The notes under the pieces are model-generated. The model saw nothing but the letters and a program-made list of their open reading frames with translations, searched no databases and had not been told where the DNA came from. A stretch of DNA of 64,000 bases, from the sequence record NC_054930.1, one strand, 5' to 3'. The position numbers and the translations under genes are program-made. Positions 1 to 9,568 of this stretch are shown piece after piece; the stretch's first letter is position 1; each line of letters opens with the position of its first letter. The DNA comes from Escherichia phage PP01.

Positions 1-244
1 TTTTTTCATCTTCAACTGTATTAACAAAGTCGTCAAATGAATCAAATTTAGCATGAGATTTATTATACAGTTTTCCATCTACTGCATAATTATATCCTTG
101 TACATCCATCTCAACTTCTGTACCATCATCTAATACAGCAGTAATTTTCTGTCCTTTTTTAAATTTCAAAAGATCAGTAAAAGATTCAGCAATAATTTGA
201 GAATTAATAGCTGCTTCAGTAATAAATTCTTGATATGTTTTCAT
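1..244 (-). CDS. Internal head protein-like gene, N-terminal part only (gene runs off the window start)
   Basis: ATG at 242-244 (reverse); translated N-terminus MKTYQEFITEAAINSQ matches the T4 internal-protein capsid-targeting sequence MKTYQEFIAE; downstream of gene e as ipIII/ipII are in T4. Confidence 0.55.
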   Translation of the reverse strand, partial: MKTYQEFITEAAINSQIIAESFTDLLKFKKGQKITAVLDDGTEVEMDVQGYNYAVDGKLYNKSHAKFDSFDDFVNTVEDEK

Positions 245-260
245 GTGTATCCTTTAATTT

Positions 261-578
261 TTATTCTTTAGGGAAGTTTTTAGAATATGCATCATAAAGC
301 TTATTTCCAATACGGCGGAAAACTCTAGCCGCAAAACGATTTTCTGGGTTTTTAATCATGATTTGCATCATATAAGTACCCGCGTCAGAAAGAGCTTCTT
401 CATAGTACCCGTTAATTTCTTTAAGAGTCCTACGTTTACCGCCAGGACCATCAACAGTGATTTTCCATTTACCTGTAGAAGTGCGACTTGGCGGCTCAAC
501 TTGTTCAATCCAGATATAACCGCCTTCTACACGTTGTCCTGCAGCAGATTCTGCAATAAATTCTTGATAGGTTTTCAT
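261..578 (-). CDS. Internal head protein-like (105 aa) with capsid-targeting sequence
   Basis: ORF begins MKTYQEFIAESAAG, the canonical CTS ending in the L/I-x-E motif cut by prohead protease; position corresponds to the T4 ipIII/ipII locus but length and body differ from what I recall for T4. Confidence 0.6.
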   Translation of the reverse strand: MKTYQEFIAESAAGQRVEGGYIWIEQVEPPSRTSTGKWKITVDGPGGKRRTLKEINGYYEEALSDAGTYMMQIMIKNPENRFAARVFRRIGNKLYDAYSKNFPKE

Positions 579-632
579 GTGTTTCCTTTAAATATTTTAA
601 TTAGTAATTTGTCTCTTCAAGCAACTGTGAAT

Positions 633-662
633 ATACTATCACAATTCCAAGAGAAAGTAAAC
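633..662 (-). promoter_or_regulatory. T4 early-type sigma70 promoter (-35 GTTTAC, extended -10 TGaTAGTAT)
   Basis: Minus-strand read GTTTAC-N18-TAGTAT with TG upstream of the -10; same architecture recurs at three other sites in the window. Confidence 0.4.
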
Positions 663-666
663 AGCT

Positions 667-1635
<969 letters not shown>

Positions 1636-1654
<19 letters not shown>

Positions 1655-1998
1655 TCACTCACAAACTCTTTCATTGATTCATTTTCAATATAAGACATGT
1701 AGCTATTATATTCTTTTAATTGTATTTTGTAATCCTTTTTTCTTTGCCAATTTATTTTAAAATTATCATAATGAAAATATAACATGGTACCAAAGAATGA
1801 AAATAATGAAATAATTTTAGTATAGTGAAGTTCACTCCAAACTTCTGTTATATTTACTGTGCCGTCGATGTTTAAAATAAGACAGTCAATTAACAATCCA
1901 AAAAGACTACCCGCAAGAGCTGCAGCCAACGCCACAGCAAAAATTAAAAATGACTCAGGAAGCGAATATTTGGCTTTATTTAGTTTTGGCTTTTGCAT
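1636..1998 (-). CDS. Hypothetical small membrane protein (e.2-e.8 region)
   Basis: 120 aa ORF with a hydrophobic stretch (FLIFAVALAAALAGSLFGLLI); overlaps neighbours by a few codons in T4 style. Confidence 0.5.
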
Positions 1999-2393
1999 CG
2001 TGATTCCTTAACAAATTTCATAATTTCATCAAATTCATACGCAGCAAGTTTAAGCTGATATTCCTTTTTAATCTTTTTACACTGTGCTTTCCAATCACGT
2101 ACGCGTTTACGATAATGCCTTCCTTGATACCAGTATCCTACCCAATTTACAGGTACTAATAAAAATGGAACTATTAATGGAAGAATTAGCATTAATACAA
2201 GTATTTCGCCAGAATCAATATCAGTCATAACATCTAAAACACCTCCAATAATCAATAGAATTACAAATGATATGAGTATAACAGGACCTATTAATACATC
2301 AGTAGAAATTAGCTGGCGCTTTAATTCATACTTCAAAGGTTTACTTGGAAGGTATAGTGATGGCTTTGACATATTCTCTACATTCCTTAACAA
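1980..2393 (-). CDS. Hypothetical membrane protein, two predicted TM helices
   Basis: 137 aa; hydrophobic segments VLIGPVILISFVILLIIGGVL and ILVLMLILPLIVPFLLVPV; true start may be an internal Met. Confidence 0.45.
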   Translation of the reverse strand: MLRNVENMSKPSLYLPSKPLKYELKRQLISTDVLIGPVILISFVILLIIGGVLDVMTDIDSGEILVLMLILPLIVPFLLVPVNWVGYWYQGRHYRKRVRDWKAQCKKIKKEYQLKLAAYEFDEIMKFVKESRCKSQN

Positions 2394-2949
2394 ATTTTTC
2401 TAGTAATAAATCGCTTTCAAAATTAGGATTTTCCACGAATTTATCAAAAAGATCATCAACGATAGTTAAGATATTCTTTTTATTAAGAATACGCTTATTT
2501 TCATATTTTGTTTCAGAATCAACTATAAGAGTAAAGAAATATTTCTTGCCCCGAAATTTTACAGTAGTATCAATATAGAATAAATTTGACTTTTGTAAAT
2601 TACGTTTAAACCATGCATCACTTAAACTATAAACGCCGAGATAATCATAATCGTCGTTTAAATAACAGACCGTCCATTCAGGAGAAACAAAATCAGTAAA
2701 TTCAACGTCAAAATCGCATGTTAATAAATGAATTGATTCAATGCTGTTAATAAGTATTCCAGGACGTATTAAAGACTTTTTACCTCTAGAAAATCTTCCA
2801 GAAAGACTTTCATCAGTTTCATATGAAGAACCCCAATAATAATTACGCCCTTCTGCCATACGTTTAAGAGCATTTAGTAATTGGTCTGGAACATCAACCT
2901 GTCTTTGGAACTCTTCAAACATTGAATTGAAATCACTTTGCATTTTCAT
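2341..2949 (-). CDS. Hypothetical protein
   Basis: 202 aa ORF in the operon frame and orientation of the e-proximal early region. Confidence 0.5.
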   Translation of the reverse strand: MKMQSDFNSMFEEFQRQVDVPDQLLNALKRMAEGRNYYWGSSYETDESLSGRFSRGKKSLIRPGILINSIESIHLLTCDFDVEFTDFVSPEWTVCYLNDDYDYLGVYSLSDAWFKRNLQKSNLFYIDTTVKFRGKKYFFTLIVDSETKYENKRILNKKNILTIVDDLFDKFVENPNFESDLLLEKFVKECREYVKAITIPSK

Positions 2950-2970
2950 TCCTATTTACTCCAAGTAATA

Positions 2971-2984
2971 GGGGCCGAAGCCCC
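2971..2984 (-). terminator. GC hairpin (ggggccGAAGcccc) between ORFs, possible terminator or RNA-stability stem-loop
   Basis: Perfect 5-bp G/C stem with GAAG loop; the same hairpin family recurs at 34131, 44441 and 48131. Confidence 0.35.
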
Positions 2985-2990
2985 TTATCA

Positions 2991-3584
2991 TTATTTCAGA
3001 GAATTAATATATTCCTGAACATCGGCAGAGGTAGTTTCAACCCCAGAAATATTACCATTAAAGGTTTCAACTCGAGCAAGGGTATCTTCAATATCAACCT
3101 TAGTCAGTGCTGCAATTTCAACTACATCATCAGCAGTACTAATTCCAAGGGCATTTGCTGCGCGAGTTTCACGGATATATTCCAATTTAACTGCGAGTTC
3201 TTGACGAGCATCATCTAACTCAACTACTTTCTTGGCGATTTCAATTCGCATTTCAGCATAACCGTCAGCTTTAGTAGTCAACTGCTCAGCTGTTCGACGA
3301 TATAGTAAACCGAGTTTAGCATGCATTGTTACATCTTGACCTTCGGAAAGAAGTTTACGAATTTCACGCTCTTTTGATTCGGCTTGTCGATTCTTTTCGA
3401 CAATAAGTTCACGAATACGCTTTTCTTCATTAATAGATTTAACGGAAGCAGTTTTTAGATCTTTAATCTTATCAAGTAGTTTTGCTGCCGCAGCAGTATA
3501 CTGTTCTTCAACAGATAGATTTTTAGCCATAGCAGAACCAAGTTTAGTGCGAATAAACTCAACAATTTTCTTCAGTGTGTTCAT
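2991..3584 (-). CDS. Hypothetical coiled-coil protein (possibly PspA/IM30-like)
   Basis: 197 aa, heptad-like charged/Leu-rich sequence ([14 protein letters not shown]...[20 protein letters not shown]); PspA resemblance is by eye only. Confidence 0.5.
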
Positions 3585-3640
3585 AGTATTTCCTTAGGTT
3601 GGTATAATTAGATAATATCACGTTTTAATAGATTGTAAAC

Positions 3641-3976
3641 TTATTCTTCGTCTAGCTCGTCGATAAAGACGTTGATGGCCTCGATAACGGCATCATTGAT
3701 AGCCAATAAAATAAAATCATCGTCAGTACCTTTAGAAGATTCTAAAGCATTGATATATGCTTGGTTGGCGAGTTCCCAAGCCTTTTTAAAATAAGGAGCT
3801 TCATCATCAGGACAAATATCCCGCACGCCTTCAAAGATACGTTTGGCATAATCTAACACCCATTGTACAGGCATGTTTTGAGAACGTTCGTTAAACTCTT
3901 TAAAGTCCTTAGATTCAAAAAGCTCTTCAGGATAATTATTTCTATTACAAAAAGCTTTACTAAAGTTACGTTTCAT
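3641..3976 (-). CDS. Hypothetical protein
   Basis: 111 aa ORF, acidic C-terminus. Confidence 0.5.
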   Translation of the reverse strand: MKRNFSKAFCNRNNYPEELFESKDFKEFNERSQNMPVQWVLDYAKRIFEGVRDICPDDEAPYFKKAWELANQAYINALESSKGTDDDFILLAINDAVIEAINVFIDELDEE

Positions 3977-4032
3977 AATGTTTTCCTCATTTGTATAGGC
4001 TCATAATATCTCAATCATGAGCCTATGTAAAC

Positions 4033-4308
4033 TTATTTCATATTATTGAAATATTCTTCTGCGATTTCGTCGTTATCATGGTAAACTTTAGAAGACAGTT
4101 TAACATAACTTTCAGCAGTGAACATGTTAATCACAACCTTTACAGTATACCACTGACCGTCTTCATTGCCCATTACCGCATAAGTTTCAAACATCGGATG
4201 ATCAGGACCGATAACTTTAATATCATTCACTGTACGACCGAAATCTTCTGAAACACATTTCATAAAGAAGTTGAACAGTTCGCCGTAATTATCCATTTCG
4301 TTCTCCAA
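4033..4308 (-). CDS. Hypothetical protein
   Basis: 91 aa ORF directly downstream of an early-promoter copy. Confidence 0.5.
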   Translation of the reverse strand: MENEMDNYGELFNFFMKCVSEDFGRTVNDIKVIGPDHPMFETYAVMGNEDGQWYTVKVVINMFTAESYVKLSSKVYHDNDEIAEEYFNNMK

Positions 4309-4339
4309 GTTGTTTTCTGTATCAGTAGTTGATAGTTGT

Positions 4340-4369
4340 ATAGTACCATGGAAGAACAGGGATGTAAAC
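4340..4369 (-). promoter_or_regulatory. T4 early-type promoter (GTTTAC -35, TGgTACTAT -10)
   Basis: Minus-strand tttcacaaaactGTTTAC-N18-TACTAT, about 30 nt upstream of the ORF starting at 4308. Confidence 0.4.
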
Positions 4370-4501
4370 AGTTTTGTGAAAAATTTTTAAAAAATTTTAG
4401 AGAATTCTAGGGTCAGGAGGGGCAATTAAAAGGTAGGATAATATATTATAAAGGGTATAAACCAAATGATGCCTAGAGAGGCCCGGAAAGGCCTAGATAC
4501 C

Positions 4502-4529
4502 AAAAAGCCCCAACCTTTCGGCTGGGGCT
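4502..4529 (-). terminator. Rho-independent terminator (copy 1 of a duplicated 30-nt element)
   Basis: Plus strand aaaaagccccaacctttcggctggggct; on the minus strand a GC hairpin followed by a U-run, immediately after the stop of the 4537..5010 gene. Confidence 0.55.
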
Positions 4530-4536
4530 AAGAATG

Positions 4537-5010
4537 TTATTTGATTTGTTTAGCAGACCAAATGCGGTCTTTAATAATTTTTTGGATGTCTTCAACATAC
4601 TCTAGGTCATGAGCATGTGGATTATCTTTGAAACTATAAGCACGAGCTAGCTTTTGGCCTTCAGTTTTGATTACTAAAAGCTCTTTAAGGATAGCTTCAT
4701 ATCTGGAGATAATTCCTTTAACAATATTTTTTTCTTGTGCAGCTTTAGGATCTGCTTTAGGAGCAGGTTTACCCGAAGCCTTTGCAAAAGCAGCGCCAGT
4801 AGCAACTAGACTTTTCCAGGCCATACTAACCGCATTTCCTGTAAATCCTTCTGCTTTCATGCCGCGAGCAAATTGGAATCGCGATTCGTCAGAAGCATCT
4901 TTATAAGAATATTTACCCGCTGCAATGGCTGCTTTTGCGACAGCTTGAATTTCGGTGCTAGATGCTTCATTTAACACCGCTTCATTTAAAAATTGAGTAT
5001 ATGATTTCAT
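4537..5010 (-). CDS. Internal-protein-like gene with a variant capsid-targeting sequence (158 aa)
   Basis: The track ORF (to 5187) runs through a terminator; the realistic start is ATG at 5008-5010 giving MKSYTQFLNEA, similar to the CTS MKTYQEFIAE with the L-x-E cleavage motif; own late promoter upstream; Ala/Lys-rich body. Confidence 0.55.
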   Translation of the reverse strand: MKSYTQFLNEAVLNEASSTEIQAVAKAAIAAGKYSYKDASDESRFQFARGMKAEGFTGNAVSMAWKSLVATGAAFAKASGKPAPKADPKAAQEKNIVKGIISRYEAILKELLVIKTEGQKLARAYSFKDNPHAHDLEYVEDIQKIIKDRIWSAKQIK

Positions 5011-5048
5011 CTTATTTCCTGTTTTAATTCGTGGATTTAATATACTAA

Positions 5049-5056
5049 TATTTATA
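5049..5056 (-). promoter_or_regulatory. T4 late promoter TATAAATA
   Basis: Plus-strand tatttata; on the coding strand TATAAATA about 39 nt upstream of the ATG at 5010. Confidence 0.5.
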
Positions 5057-5058
5057 CT

Positions 5059-5087
5059 AAAAAGCCCCAACCTTTCGGTCGGGGCTA
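5059..5087 (-). terminator. Rho-independent terminator (copy 2 of the duplicated 30-nt element)
   Basis: aaaaagccccaacctttcggtcggggct, near-identical to 4502-4529; lies downstream of the stable-RNA region. Confidence 0.55.
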
Positions 5088-5089
5088 AG

Positions 5090-5400
5090 CCTTGCGGCAA
5101 CCTTGTCGGGGTTCCACCTGCTAAGGCAAGTGTTTGTACGAAACGCCGGGATTCGAACCCGGTTATTAAGTAGTTGACGCTACTCAATATTTTTAAAAGG
5201 CCATATCTCGACCATATCCGAACGTTCCGTCAAAAACGCTACTCGGCTTATGGCAAAGATATTTCCTCGAATCGATAATTCGGTGCGCCGTTTCTGCTGT
5301 GATATAAGGGGGCATTAACAAAACATAAAGATTTATTAATGCCAGTCCTTACCCAGGGAACATCAGTCCGACGACTTACCGGTAGCGACCCGGTTTCTTG
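5090..5400 (-). ncRNA. Candidate small stable RNA gene(s), T4 RNA C / RNA D-like region
   Basis: No ORF; contains a tRNA-like T-arm (ccgggTTCGAATcccgg, reverse strand) and several stems; position next to tRNA-Arg matches where T4 encodes its two stable RNAs; boundaries not resolved. Confidence 0.3.
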
Positions 5401-5402
5401 TT

Positions 5403-5479
<77 letters not shown>

Positions 5480-5482
5480 TAA

Positions 5483-6148
5483 TTAAAATTTCATTTTTCG
5501 ACCTTTAAACCATCCTTCTGGAATTGGGTCAGTTTTCTTAATACGTTTAGAAACTTTTTCATCCAATGAATGAATCCACATCATGCCAAATTGGGAATTC
5601 TTTTCACCTTGTTGGTGTTTATTTCTGGCGTGAGATTCTTTCATTTTATTAATAGTTTCAGGAGTATGGGTCTTACCCAAGAAAGATTTAGTATTTAAAA
5701 ATTTCTCTCTATACTTAGGATTATCCCAAAGCTGTTTAAACCTTTCTGAACCCATTTTACGATATTTTTCTTTAAGGTCTGGGTCGTTCTCAAATCTGGT
5801 TTTAAAAGCGGCAGCTCCTTTTAAGGAAGCTTCTTTCTTTTTATCCAAATATTCTTTAGTGTTTAAATGGTCCCAACCACCTTCACCACCTAATTTCAGA
5901 TTATAAACATCAGGGCGCTTTAAAAACTCTTCAGTCACAATATTCTTTTCTGACTCAAACATAGAGGTTTTATCGTCAAAGAACTCTAATATTTCTTTAG
6001 AAAAATTTTCTATACCATATTTATCTTGGGCTCTTTTTAATAATTTACCAGAACCCATATATCCATCATCTAAATTTTCGGTAGAATGAGCGCCTATATA
6101 GATTTTATTATTAATTTTATTTGTTATTTTATAAATGTAATGGAACAT
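5483..6148 (-). CDS. segB: GIY-YIG homing endonuclease SegB
   Basis: 221 aa; N-terminal GIY-YIG module (YIYKITNKINNKIYIGAHS...GYMGSG); embedded in the tRNA cluster as T4 segB is. Confidence 0.88.
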   Translation of the reverse strand: MFHYIYKITNKINNKIYIGAHSTENLDDGYMGSGKLLKRAQDKYGIENFSKEILEFFDDKTSMFESEKNIVTEEFLKRPDVYNLKLGGEGGWDHLNTKEYLDKKKEASLKGAAAFKTRFENDPDLKEKYRKMGSERFKQLWDNPKYREKFLNTKSFLGKTHTPETINKMKESHARNKHQQGEKNSQFGMMWIHSLDEKVSKRIKKTDPIPEGWFKGRKMKF

Positions 6149-6189
6149 AAATATCTCCTATTTCTAAGAGTATTTATGTTCCCAAAATA

Positions 6190-6261
6190 TGGCCCTGGGT
6201 GGAATTGAACCACCATCTGGCGATTATGAGTCGCTTGCTTGAACCTTCCAGCTACAGGGCC
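6190..6261 (-). tRNA. tRNA with CAU anticodon (T4 tRNA-Ile type)
   Basis: Acceptor GGCCCTG/CAGGGCC, T-arm GGTGG-TTCAATT-CCACC, anticodon loop CTCATAA; T4 encodes a CAU-anticodon tRNA-Ile that is modified to read AUA. Confidence 0.75.
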
Positions 6262-6267
6262 TTGATA

Positions 6268-6340
6268 TGCTGATTGACGGAATCGAACCGCCGACGTCCT
6301 CATTACAAGTGAGGTGCTCTACCTACTGAGCTAAATCAGC
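6268..6340 (-). tRNA. tRNA-Thr (UGU)
   Basis: Canonical cloverleaf GCTGATT-TA-GCTC..GAGC-CCTCA-CTTGTAA-TGAGG..GGCGG-TTCGATT-CCGTC-AATCAGC. Confidence 0.85.
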
Positions 6341-6347
6341 GAAATTA

Positions 6348-6434
6348 CGGAGGCGATAGGATTTGAACCTATGAGTCGCCGGAGCGACTGCCGGTTTTCA
6401 AGACCGGTGCATTAAACCACTCTGCCACGCCTCC
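6348..6434 (-). tRNA. tRNA-Ser (UGA), long variable arm
   Basis: GGAGGCG acceptor, anticodon loop CTTGAAA, extended variable arm, T-arm CATAGG-TTCAAAT-CCTAT. Confidence 0.85.
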
Positions 6435-6436
6435 AG

Positions 6437-6510
6437 TCTCCGCGGCAGGATTTGAACCTGCGACATTCTGCTCCCAAAGCAGACGCTCTACCAAACTGAG
6501 CTACACGGAG
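6437..6510 (-). tRNA. tRNA-Pro (UGG)
   Basis: CTCCGTG-TA-GCTC-AGTTTGGTA-GAGC-TCTGC-TTTGGGA-GCAGA..GCAGG-TTCAAAT-CCTGC-CGCGGAG. Confidence 0.88.
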
Positions 6511-6522
6511 TAAATTAAATTT

Positions 6523-6594
<72 letters not shown>

Positions 6595-6600
6595 AAACTT

Positions 6601-6687
6601 TGGTACGAGAAGTGGGACTCGAACCCACAAGGAAATCATTCCGCAGCATTTTAAGTGCTGTGCCTTTACCAATTTGACCATTCTCGC
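6601..6687 (-). tRNA. tRNA-Leu (UAA), long variable arm, CCA encoded
   Basis: GCGAGAA acceptor, anticodon loop CTTAAAA, variable arm CGGAATGATTTCCTT, T-arm GTGGG-TTCGAGT-CCCAC, 3' ACCA. Confidence 0.85.
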
Positions 6688-6688
6688 G

Positions 6689-6761
6689 CTGGGAATAAAG
6701 GACTCGAACCTTTGCATCCTGGAATCAAAATCCAGTGCCTTACCAACTTGGCTAATTCCCA
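6689..6761 (-). tRNA. tRNA-Gln (UUG)
   Basis: TGGGAAT-TA-GCCA..GGCA-CTGGA-TTTTGAT-TCCAG..AAAGG-TTCGAGT-CCTTT-ATTCCCA; first in the T4 order Gln-Leu-Gly-Pro-Ser-Thr-Ile-Arg. Confidence 0.85.
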
Positions 6762-6858
6762 ATTATTAACAAAGGCTCTCTAACAAGAACCCTTGATGAT
6801 AGAGGGTATTAATCAGTGCGGTATGAGTTAATAATAACAAATAATTCTTAAAGCATAT

Positions 6859-7146
6859 TTACCATTTATGATAATACATATTTACGATGCATTCAAGACC
6901 TAAAGGATTCTTGAAAATATCATATTCAAGAGGACCTTTTTCCGTTTCAATAAAGAAATCAAAGTTAACTGTATTAAATTTACGGTCTTCCTTCACTAAT
7001 TTAACTTGAGAAGATGAACGGTCAATGTAAACCTTTTCAACTTCAAAACATGTTAAAACGCCATAATCATCAATCAAGGCTTTAGCCGCGTCTTGATCAT
7101 ATTTATATCCATTTTCAATGGACGATACTTTAGCATAAAGAATCAT
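6859..7146 (-). CDS. Hypothetical protein
   Basis: 95 aa ORF; its ATG sits 3 nt after the stop of the upstream frameshifted ORF. Confidence 0.5.
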   Translation of the reverse strand: MILYAKVSSIENGYKYDQDAAKALIDDYGVLTCFEVEKVYIDRSSSQVKLVKEDRKFNTVNFDFFIETEKGPLEYDIFKNPLGLECIVNMYYHKW

Positions 7147-7148
7147 TA

Positions 7149-7558
7149 TCAGCCTTCATCAACAATAGTATGAGTGTGGGCATTTACGATTTGCCACCAG
7201 TCGAAACGATTGGAACCATAATCTGGTTTATTTTCATTTTCTTTAATGATATCACGCAGTTTATCTTCTGTTTCAGCATACGCAATTAAATCATCATATC
7301 CGCCACAAGGATAATAATTATCACCTGCGAATAAAAGAAAATTTACCTTAGATGGATTTACGTAATAATGGTCTTTAGGATATTTAGTTCCTCTCCAATC
7401 AGTTACTTCAACATAACGGTAAGAAAATCCATTTTTACTTTCAATCCAACTCCACGCTTCAAAAGGAGTATTAAAAACTTTATCAGGTATTAAATTACCT
7501 TCAAAATGAGAAGGATTTGCATAATCCCAGCATAAACATAGTATTCGTTAATACTCAT
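7149..7558 (-). pseudogene. Frameshifted ORF (about 135 codons), absent from the ATG-based track
   Basis: ATG at 7556-7558 opens a frame that stops after 22 codons; a different frame continues stop-free for about 130 codons (WDYANPSHFEG...GDNYYPCGGYDDLIAY...WWQIVNAHTHTIVDEG) to a stop at 7149-7151 but has no ATG/GTG/TTG start. Confidence 0.4.
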
Positions 7559-7744
7559 CTATTCACCTTTAGAAATTTTATCCATAACGATAGCGATTAA
7601 ACCAATTAAAAATGCTACTACAAGCGAAAACACATTTTCTGCTGTAGTTAATAATCCGCATATAAATCCAACAAACATTGAAAAACTAAAAGCGGAAGCA
7701 GAAATTGCAATAGCAACATTTCGAATTAATTCACAACGTTTCAT
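7559..7744 (-). CDS. Small hydrophobic membrane protein (61 aa)
   Basis: Start taken at the internal ATG (7742-7744) preceded by GAGGAG; the track ORF begins at a TTG; sequence MKRCELIRNVAIAISASAFSFSMFVGFICGLL is strongly hydrophobic. Confidence 0.45.
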   Translation of the reverse strand: MKRCELIRNVAIAISASAFSFSMFVGFICGLLTTAENVFSLVVAFLIGLIAIVMDKISKGE

Positions 7745-7772
7745 TTTATTCTCCTCAGTAGTTGATAGGGTA

Positions 7773-7802
7773 ATAGTATCACTACTAAAACCCCGTGTAA
7801 AC
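7773..7802 (-). promoter_or_regulatory. T4 early-type promoter copy (GTTTAC -35, gTGaTACTAT -10) overlapping an inverted repeat
   Basis: Minus strand aaataatttcacaaagttGTTTACacgggg...gtgaTACTAT; 49-nt block shared with the copy at 8104-8133. Confidence 0.4.
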
Positions 7803-7814
7803 AACTTTGTGAAA

Positions 7815-8072
7815 TTATTTTAAATCTTCTAATCGTTTCTTCATCTTAGAACCATTTTTAGCGATTTCTCCTGCGTCAGAGCATAATGCTAAAAGTGCTT
7901 TAACTTTAGTTTGGTCTCCTTTAAAAGACGAAGGATCGACTGCAGCAGCAAGTTCTTTAATACGAGAGAAAAGACGCTCAGCTTCAGCTAAAGCCATTCC
8001 AAGCTTTACTTCCATACCATGAGAAGATTCAGTGATAATAGTTTCTGTAGCAAACTCTTTATAAGTTTTCAT
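7815..8072 (-). CDS. Internal protein I-like (85 aa) with CTS
   Basis: MKTYKEFATE N-terminus (CTS variant); adjacent to 57B as ipI is in T4; the body differs from what I recall of T4 IPI. Confidence 0.65.
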   Translation of the reverse strand: MKTYKEFATETIITESSHGMEVKLGMALAEAERLFSRIKELAAAVDPSSFKGDQTKVKALLALCSDAGEIAKNGSKMKKRLEDLK

Positions 8073-8103
8073 TTTATTTTTCCTAATTAATTTTGATGAG
8101 GTA

Positions 8104-8133
8104 ATAGTATCACTACCTCATCAGTGTGTAAAC
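8104..8133 (-). promoter_or_regulatory. T4 early-type promoter copy (GTTTAC -35, gTGaTACTAT -10)
   Basis: Same 49-nt block as at 7773-7802; hairpin ctgatgaggta...tacctcatcag overlaps the -10; drives the ipI-like gene. Confidence 0.4.
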
Positions 8134-8145
8134 AACTTTGTGAAA

Positions 8146-8842
<697 letters not shown>

Positions 8843-8843
<1 letters not shown>

Positions 8844-9568
8844 TATAGTACCTTTAGTGTATTTTTAATTTTAGAAAAAAGTTCTTCAAGAGAACCATCG
8901 TTTGTAATTACTAAATCGCCATCACGAATTGGCAATCCAGCTTCTGTAATATGTGTATCATTGGATTTTTGACCAGGACGAACTACATGAATTACTGTAG
9001 CACCCATCGCCCTAGCCGCATCCATTTCATGATCTTGACGGGTATCAGGAACGATATAATAATCATAACCTGAGTTAAATTTATCAAGATAATCTAAAGC
9101 AAATAATTTTACCCAGTACATGCGGTCGAAGTTATTAACAATCAAATCCGTACCTAGGGCTTGCATCAGACGACGGACTGACCATTGATCTTCAATATTA
9201 TTTATAACGTCAATAATCTTGTTAAATGCTACGAAATTAACTGATTCTTGTCCTTCGTCATCAAAAACAAACACACCTTTAATTGGGCTTTTACCATTAA
9301 GATAGCAAAATGCTTGTTCCATAATGGTGATTACTTCTAATTTAGTCAGATTTAAATTAGTCTCACGATCATAGTCAATTCCTTCAAACTCTTTACGAGT
9401 TAAGCAAGGATAGTCAGTGTTTGCTGCAAATACTCCCCATGCATAAGCCAATGCATCCTTAATAGGACCAGCAAGTTGATATTTAACTGCAGAATAATTA
9501 TTCATAATAAAATCTGCAGTAGTATCTTTTCCACTACGCTTTACACCACTTAAAAAGATTAGTTTCAT
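8843..9568 (-). CDS. 1: Deoxynucleoside monophosphate kinase (gene 1)
   Basis: Start at ATG 9566-9568 gives 241 aa as in T4; P-loop GVKRSGKDT near the N-terminus. Confidence 0.88.

Follow-up and report, generated by a model that had tools for sequence, protein, structure and literature searches.

Phage T4 packs internal proteins into its head together with its DNA. A leader, the CTS, directs T4 proteins into the prohead scaffolding core (PMC3012670; PMC12373910). Around 1000 internal-protein molecules are embedded in the T4 DNA and are injected with it (PMC3012670). After T4 lysozyme, the genes are ordered e, ipIII (193 aa), ipII (100 aa), denV and vs.8. Three internal proteins, Ip1, Ip2 and Ip3, each inhibit one specific GmrSD enzyme (Silas et al. 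2025, PMC12373910). The CTS protein Bas37_0260 inhibits McrBC (bioRxiv 10.1101/2025.11.20.689424). Papers that cite Repoila et al. (1994) credit that study with describing the shuffling of cassettes at T-even ip loci (PMC3012670, PMC4122927). As relayed in this later, review-level literature, variability of the ip locus behind a conserved CTS leader has been known since 1994. Work on promoter-stem-loop (PeSL) elements extended the idea of cassette shuffling (Comeau et al. 2014, PMC4122927).

We analysed a window of 64,000 nucleotides from Escherichia phage PP01 (NC_054930.1). The window is a mosaic Tequatrovirus segment; it is ~96-97% identical to many T-even phages of E. coli, Shigella and Yersinia and is identical to none of them. 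The minus strand carries all genes in the first 9 kb. Downstream of the lysozyme gene e is a gene of the Ip10 family, followed by ip4, which is cut by the window edge (Table 1). Homology thus identifies the interval after e as two known T-even internal-protein (ip) genes. Their position is that of an ip locus: they lie directly 3′ of e, and the flanks are collinear with those of T4, T2, Sf25, RB69, VR20 and CC31. In at least 63 phage records, a single piece covers at least 80% of the 1.2 kb from e through ip10 to ip4. Hence the locus is an ordinary one for T-even phages, though unlike T4 itself. A search of positions 1..9000 for RNA elements returned eight tRNAs and nothing else, and no Rfam family matched the e-ip region.

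Table 1. Features of the e-ip locus and of the other CTS-type genes, as assigned from the nucleotide sequence of the window.
Feature	Position	Strand	Remarks
ip4, 5′ part	2..244	(-)	81 codons, from translation; runs off the window edge; 157 aa in relatives
CTS stretch of ip4, MKTYQEFITE	215..244	(-)	I-T-E at residues 8-10
Downstream copy of the 37-nt repeat	221..257	(-)	before ip4; 35/37 positions match the upstream copy
Ip10-family internal-protein gene, complete	261..578	(-)	ORF of 105 aa; phrog_3966 match
CTS stretch of the Ip10-type gene, MKTYQEFIAE	549..578	(-)	ends in I-A-E, fits the gp21 prohead-protease site
Upstream copy of the 37-nt repeat, ribosome-binding site + ATG + CTS (TTAAAGGAAACACATGAAAACCTATCAAGAATTTATT)	555..591	(-)	from alignment
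e-to-ip intergenic region	579..666	(-)	homologous to the T4 e-ipIII intergenic region
Lysozyme gene e	667..1161	(-)	conserved anchor of the e-ip locus
Two exact T4 late-promoter octamers, TATAAATA	1175..1195	(-)	upstream of e
Repeats around the 157-aa gene	4497..4532 and 5054..5089		
157-aa gene, RB32ORF132c type, CTS-like leader MKSYTQFLNE	4537..5010	(-)	phrog_2280, no function assigned
Late-promoter octamer near the 157-aa gene, TATAAATA	5049..5056		
ip5, 85 aa, leader MKTYKEFATETIITE	7815..8072	(-)	position of T4 ipI

The initial annotation had described two consecutive genes after e that start with a CTS, and at least four CTS-tagged proteins in the window. Both observations hold. The two genes after e open with the leaders MKTYQEFIAE and MKTYQEFITE. 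In a six-frame translation of the 64-kb window, the motif MK[ST][YF].[EQ]F..E occurs four times (starts 578, 244, 8072 and 5010). Every occurrence is on the minus strand and at the start of an ORF; the number expected was 0.0003, and none appeared in 200 shuffles. The count of four is far beyond chance, with the leader of the 157-aa gene being more divergent than the others.

Scanning for the gp21-type motif (L/I)-x-E located it at residues 8-10 of both proteins encoded after e, as I-A-E in the Ip10-type protein and I-T-E in Ip4. The ip4 product has a second I-A-E motif at residues 18-20. The T4 prohead protease, gp21, cleaves after the Glu of (L/I)-x-E. The predicted mature forms are 95 aa with a pI of 9.6 (Ip10-type) and 147 aa with a pI of 9.1 (Ip4), each with a net charge of about +4; after cleavage they would begin at Ser11 and Ala11, respectively. 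They are basic like T4 IPI*, IPII* and IPIII*, for which the pI is 9.0-9.65. Taken together, the leader with its cleavage motif, the position in the genome and the basicity of the mature protein mark both genes as probable internal-protein genes by every property that sequence can reveal. Our literature search found no virion proteomics report for Ip4 or Ip10.

The 105-aa product can be assigned to the Ip10 family. It matches phrog_3966 over residues 1-105 (E=3e-34) and shares 71% identity with the Shigella phage SP18 protein named ‘Ip10’ (100% coverage, E=5e-43). Identity is also 71% with the VR20 protein recorded as ‘ip10: putative internal head protein’. An identical protein (100%) forms cluster P0001, seen on 60 contigs. 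No Pfam family covers this protein. Homologues of the body are found in 188 phage records from four Tevenvirinae genera, including RB69 (ORF124c), VR20 and Enterobacter phages such as CC31 (~50%). In all genomes inspected (RB69, VR20, CC31 and Sf25), the gene sits between e and vs.8. Its partners vary in RB69, VR20 and CC31, and include ip5, ip7 and denV. The form of the gene in the window is a Tequatrovirus/RB69-type allele, which is 95-100% identical in 130 records. Most annotations call this allele ‘hypothetical protein’ or mislabel it as IpII or IpIII.

The truncated gene at the window edge is identified by homology as ip4, of the Ip4/DUF7412 family. Its 81 visible codons match gp251 of Shigella phage Sf25 (157 aa) at 100%. 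Full-length gp251 scores 319 bits against Pfam DUF7412 (PF24183; E=6e-96, gathering cut-off 27), and it also matches phrog_3155, ‘internal virion protein’. Members of the ip4 cluster carry PF24183. Distribution was measured by tblastn using the mature body, residues 11-157 of Sf25 gp251, as the query. Matches occurred in 469 phage records. The gp251 body is 100% identical in T2 and 99.3-100% identical in records naming Ip4 or ipIV (RB51, Shfl2, GiZh and ECML-363). ‘Ip4’ of Salmonella phage S16, and the proteins of many Klebsiella phages, are ~71% identical to it. Among 12 sequences, taken from phages that infect E. coli, Salmonella, Klebsiella or Serratia, 68 of the 157 columns are invariant. 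The invariant positions include motifs containing His, Asp and Glu (LMAxGHxRI and GEDNFAL), kept over the four host genera; His64, Asp90, His99, Glu111 and Asp112 are among the invariant residues.

The two genes occupy the positions of T4 ipIII and ipII, and the Sf25 and SH7 GenBank records attach the labels ‘IpII’ and ‘IpIII’ to such proteins. Hence, they might be read as diverged orthologues of T4 IPII and IPIII. The two records assign the labels opposite ways round. In BLASTP comparisons with T4 IPI, IPII and IPIII, similarity of both window proteins was limited to the first 10-17 residues. When the leaders were removed and eight mature bodies were compared pairwise, the best match had E=0.07, which is meaningless in a database of eight sequences. 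The PHROG and Pfam families of the window proteins also differ from those of T4 IPII and IPIII. With no similarity past the leader, and with DNA homology ending 13 codons into the gene, we reject orthology and give it almost no chance of being right. The initial annotation, which found the 105-aa body unlike T4 IPIII or IPII, was correct on this point. No full-length identity to the T4 proteins emerged, yet the locus is conserved, and its genes are named, in the wider T-even family.

The breakpoints with T4 were placed at the nucleotide level. Positions 539..1300 of the window align with positions 4377..5137 of the T4 locus at 95.7% identity (blastn); this span takes in e, the DNA between e and ipIII with the ipIII promoter and ribosome site, and 13 codons at the start of ipIII. 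Homology ends at position 539, just inside the Ip10-type gene and after the CTS. The sole other similarity to T4 within 1..538 is a stretch of 45 nt at 213..257, which is 91% identical to the 5′ ends of T4 ipII and ipIII (ribosome site and CTS). In Sf25, where the whole arrangement is present, T4 homology resumes at the ip4 stop codon. The ipIII, ipII and denV bodies are therefore replaced by the ip10 and ip4 bodies. Compared with T2, in which ip4 alone follows e, the window has 285 bp of inserted DNA, the ip10 body, and ~49 nt of T2 align on both sides of this insertion. This footprint fits a role for the conserved 5′ element, consisting of ribosome site and CTS, as a homology arm for the gain, loss and exchange of cassettes. 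The recombination itself we infer from the breakpoints.

The octamer TATAAATA matched 23 times in the window, against 10 expected. Neither ip gene has an exact late-promoter consensus immediately before it, which weighs against our overall explanation; the closest copies are those upstream of e. We found no terminator-like site in 1..1300, including between e and ip4. Late read-through from upstream of e is therefore plausible, as is late co-transcription of e, ip10 and ip4 from these octamers.

Two further CTS-type genes lie elsewhere in the window. The four genes are spread over three separate loci: e-vs.8, e.8-tRNA and tRNA.4-57B. The 85-aa product of ip5 matches phrog_3499, ‘internal head protein’ (E=4e-50), and is 100% identical to ‘Ip5’ of RB14 and 98.6% identical to the T2 protein. 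The name Ip5 is given to the homologue in the RB51 annotation, and Ip5 is present in RB14, RB51, T6 and T2. DNA upstream of ip5 aligns closely with DNA upstream of T4 ipI. The 157-aa gene occurs in 510 records; among the matches listed, every annotated feature is a ‘hypothetical protein’ and none is an internal protein. For its homologue, RB51 carries the note ‘flanked by 34 bp imperfect direct repeat’. We consider this gene related to the CTS set, and a candidate rather than an established internal protein. It could possibly encode one more injected protein that has escaped recognition, on a module with a terminator and late promoter of its own.

Searches for distant relatives of the two proteins encoded after e gave little. 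A HMMER search of 1.84 billion representatives with the Ip10-type body retrieved one true relative (52%) and five large repetitive proteins. The latter are mutually unrelated by Pfam (RTX, filamin, Calx-beta/CBM60 and SdrD repeats) and were rejected as homologues. Each of these scores adds up numerous short matches to repeats, and the hits were therefore treated as spurious. No credible match came from sequence searches of the PDB, and no NCBIfam family scored above its cut-off. The AlphaFold models are of moderate confidence. In that of the Ip10-type protein (pLDDT 64), three strands are accompanied by a helix and a weak fourth strand. Ip4 is modelled (pLDDT 74) as two parts rich in beta structure, with helices connecting them. 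With either model as the Foldseek query, no PDB entry reached E<=0.001 and no TM-score exceeded 0.42, a weak test at such pLDDT values. Against BFVD, the Ip10-type model matched only its own homologue, from Cronobacter phage Pet-CM3-4. These searches detected no enzyme family or fold for either protein.

The best overall explanation is that these are known ip genes, whose products undergo CTS-directed packaging, cleavage and injection, and whose bodies are exchanged as cassettes. We put the probability of this at roughly 85%. As in T4, the CTS would guide the Ip10-type protein and Ip4 into the prohead scaffolding core. There, gp21 would remove the leader after Glu10 to leave the basic mature proteins. 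These would lie with the packaged DNA and enter the host alongside it. Once in the host, their most probable job, with odds only slightly better than even, would be stoichiometric inhibition of a modification-dependent (type IV) nuclease that attacks hypermodified T-even DNA. Recombination through the ribosome-site and CTS DNA, and through the conserved flanks e and vs.8, would allow ip bodies to be swapped or inserted.

All four characterised CTS cargo proteins block type IV restriction. The same role is therefore favoured for the Ip10-type protein and Ip4; by this analogy, we lean slightly towards their being inhibitors of a modification-dependent restriction nuclease. Several observations bear on a different reading, that the proteins are packaged and injected and act on something other than a type IV restriction enzyme, with a target outside the GmrSD family that may be another class of early defence or a host function. 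In the screen of Silas and co-workers, none of ip4-10 reproducibly inhibited any of the eight active GmrSD systems (Supplementary Fig. 9, PMC12373910). The GmrSD family is very diverse (PMC12373910), so that the negative screen sampled only part of it. The ip4-10 construct sequences are absent from the supplements of that study (PMC12373910), and the ‘ip10’ screened may not be the allele in the window. T2 carries Ip4 and is nonetheless subject to restriction by GmrSD from ECOR21 and from ECOR17 (PMC12373910), so that Ip4 does not block those two enzymes. The Ip10 family is found in phages with different hypermodifications, glucosyl-hmC in Tequatrovirus and arabinosyl-hmC in RB69 (PMC6024577), and so its target need not read one particular sugar. 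Strong conservation of Ip4 fits a rapidly co-evolving inhibitor less well and leaves room for another role. Given the invariant His, Asp and Glu motifs, Ip4 might even be an enzyme, a reading that sits poorly with the failure to detect any enzyme family or fold. Neither AlphaFold model resembles a solved structure, and the inhibitor role is therefore without structural support. With every characterised CTS cargo protein directed at type IV restriction, we regard a target of another kind, or an enzymatic Ip4, as possible and distinctly less likely than type IV inhibition.

The proteins could also be mainly physical cargo that neutralises DNA charge, or that aids packaging or ejection, with no specific host target. 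In small size and basicity, their mature forms resemble the internal proteins of T4. Lysines of the T4 proteins contact DNA phosphates, and the many molecules per head are embedded in the DNA (PMC3012670). Such a generic charge role leaves unexplained why unrelated bodies are swapped while the leader alone is kept. It does not account for Bas37, which has no ip gene between e and vs.8, and is hard to square with the specific target of each T4 Ip. We consider this improbable. Inhibition of a type IV nuclease remains our preferred function for the Ip10-type protein and Ip4.

The initial annotation proposed a hyperplastic locus of injected anti-defence proteins carrying non-T4 cargo. Conserved leaders, non-T4 bodies and the literature (PMC3012670, PMC4122927, PMC12373910) agree with a set of injected proteins. 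The genes occupy three loci, not one, and an anti-defence function for Ip4 and the Ip10-type protein is drawn by analogy. Any novelty implied for the cargo falls away, as these proteins already have names (Ip4, Ip10-type and Ip5). The e-Ip10-Ip4 locus is an ordinary example of known variability. The finding itself matters little, as both genes already have names and the stretch is shared, wholly or for the most part, by at least 63 sequenced phages. By their record counts, Ip4 (469) and the Ip10 family (188) are very widespread for predicted injected phage proteins. Since they are so widespread, and since type IV restriction is blocked by each of the four relatives characterised, they make reasonable probes for new modification-dependent defences in wild Enterobacteria. 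Database labels are inconsistent, with ‘IpII’ and ‘IpIII’ placed on proteins that are not homologous.

With T4 IPI*, IPII and IPIII, the window proteins share the CTS leader, the (L/I)-x-E motif, the loci and small, basic mature forms. The DNA upstream of the window genes is ~95% identical to that upstream of T4 ipIII. They differ in that the window mature bodies are unrelated to those of T4, and no PDB structure matches their models at E<=0.001. Ip10 of SP18 and VR7/VR20 (phrog_3966) is the closest named relative of the 105-aa protein, with full-length homology of 71-72%, the same leader and the same e-vs.8 interval; the window gene is the Tequatrovirus/RB69-type allele, ~29% diverged from it. 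For Ip4, comparison with T2, RB51, Shfl2 and S16 (DUF7412, phrog_3155) reveals the same leader, the same position beside vs.8 and no detectable difference, the window simply truncating the gene. The arrangement is distinct from that of T2, where Ip4 is alone after e; in the window, an Ip10-type gene lies between e and ip4.

Bas37_0260, the sequence of which is from phage KarlGJung, resembles the window proteins in being a small protein from an ip locus, with a CTS leader and a body that is otherwise unrelated. Its gene sits at the ipI locus, not after e. The window does not carry this McrBC inhibitor: a homologue of its body is absent and only the leaders match. From Bas37_0260 it is clear that GmrSD is not the only type IV enzyme that CTS cargo can target. 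In its pattern of exchange, the locus resembles PeSL or conserved-flank shuffling (Repoila 1994; Arbiol 2010; Comeau 2014), where unrelated ORFs are exchanged between short conserved regulatory or 5′ sequences and the breakpoints coincide with these. It differs from PeSL in that the repeated element is a ribosome site with CTS coding sequence, rather than an early promoter with a stem-loop.

The interval between lysozyme e and vs.8 varies in gene content in nearly all genomes inspected (window 1..666; loci L001, L003, L004, L005-L008 and L010). T4 carries ipIII-ipII-denV at this site and T2 carries ip4. The arrangement is ip10-ip4 in Sf25 and SH7, and denV-ip4 in RB51. Longer arrays are found in RB69 (ip5-like, denV, internal head protein, ip10, ORF) and VR20 (ip5, denV, ip10, ORF, ip7). 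The CC31 interval contains an ORF, denV and ip10; that of Bas37 contains denV only, with no ip genes. The denV gene too acts like a shuffled cassette of this interval. It is missing from the closest relatives of the window.

Database labels for the Ip10-type and Ip4 proteins conflict. In the Sf25 GenBank record the 157-aa protein is 'IpIII' and the 105-aa protein is 'IpII'; conversely, the SH7 record applies these names the other way round. Past the leader, neither protein has homology to T4 IPII or IPIII. The name 'IpII internal head protein' has been passed on in UniRef for the Ip10-type cluster.

The query alignment to the Ip10-family gene of RB69 (1771..2083 of the RB69 locus) is split into two pieces, and the annotated product, RB69ORF124c, has only 90 aa. 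Together, these observations suggest a frameshift or a different C-terminus in RB69. A metagenomic cluster of the family (P0004, 68 aa) looks frameshifted as well.

The part of Ip4 encoded in the window (2..244) covers residues 1-81 of the family alignment. Across phages of four host genera, identity in this alignment is 60-82%, which is unusually high for an accessory protein. Three blocks are invariant: GYNYxxxGKLYNKxHAKF, LMAxGHxRI and GEDNFALxGYQxGK. This degree of sequence conservation hints at a constrained function, possibly catalytic or multi-contact. The AlphaFold model of Ip4 (pLDDT 74) had no match among solved structures.

Upstream of the Ip10-type gene lies a TGCTTGA sequence that resembles the MotA box found in middle promoters of T4 and could mark a candidate promoter of this class. 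The TAATTA found 13 nt after it is a poor −10 element. This stretch is also conserved in front of ipIII in T4.

Features of the window and of related loci
Feature	Sequence	Coordinates	Strand	Remark
MotA-like box TGCTTGA	window	617..623	minus	5' of Ip10-type gene
Equivalent of window 1..578	Sf25 (L001)	2771..3578
Equivalent of window 1..578	SH7 (L002)	2771..3578
Cassette gene	window	4537..5010	minus	157 aa, CTS-like leader; cassette with flanks 4497..5089
36-nt direct repeats	window	4497..4532 and 5054..5089		around cassette gene; 92% identical
Late-promoter octamer TATAAATA	window	5049..5056		exact; at cassette
221-aa ORF	window	5483..6148	minus	666 bp; within tRNA cluster 5403..6761

The cassette gene encodes a product with a leader (MKSYTQFLNE|AVLNE|A) that is divergent but like the capsid-targeting sequence (CTS) of internal proteins. 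The computed pI of the mature form is 9.6. Read on the minus strand, both repeats contain a GC-rich hairpin followed by a T-run. Using the mature body as the query, tblastn matched 510 phage records; among the matches listed, every annotated feature was a 'hypothetical protein' and none was an internal protein. The product may be an unrecognised injected protein, carried on a self-contained terminator/late-promoter cassette. The RB51 annotation names the counterpart RB32ORF132c and describes it as 'flanked by 34 bp imperfect direct repeat'.

The cassette gene occupies the interval between e.8 and tRNA-Arg, whereas the same interval of T4 has no gene. The nearby 221-aa ORF has tRNA-Arg on one side and the other seven tRNA genes on the opposite side. 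At this position T4 carries the homing endonuclease gene segB, which is of identical length. The window tRNA with anticodon CAT, called as Met by ARAGORN, sits at the position of T4 tRNA-Ile.
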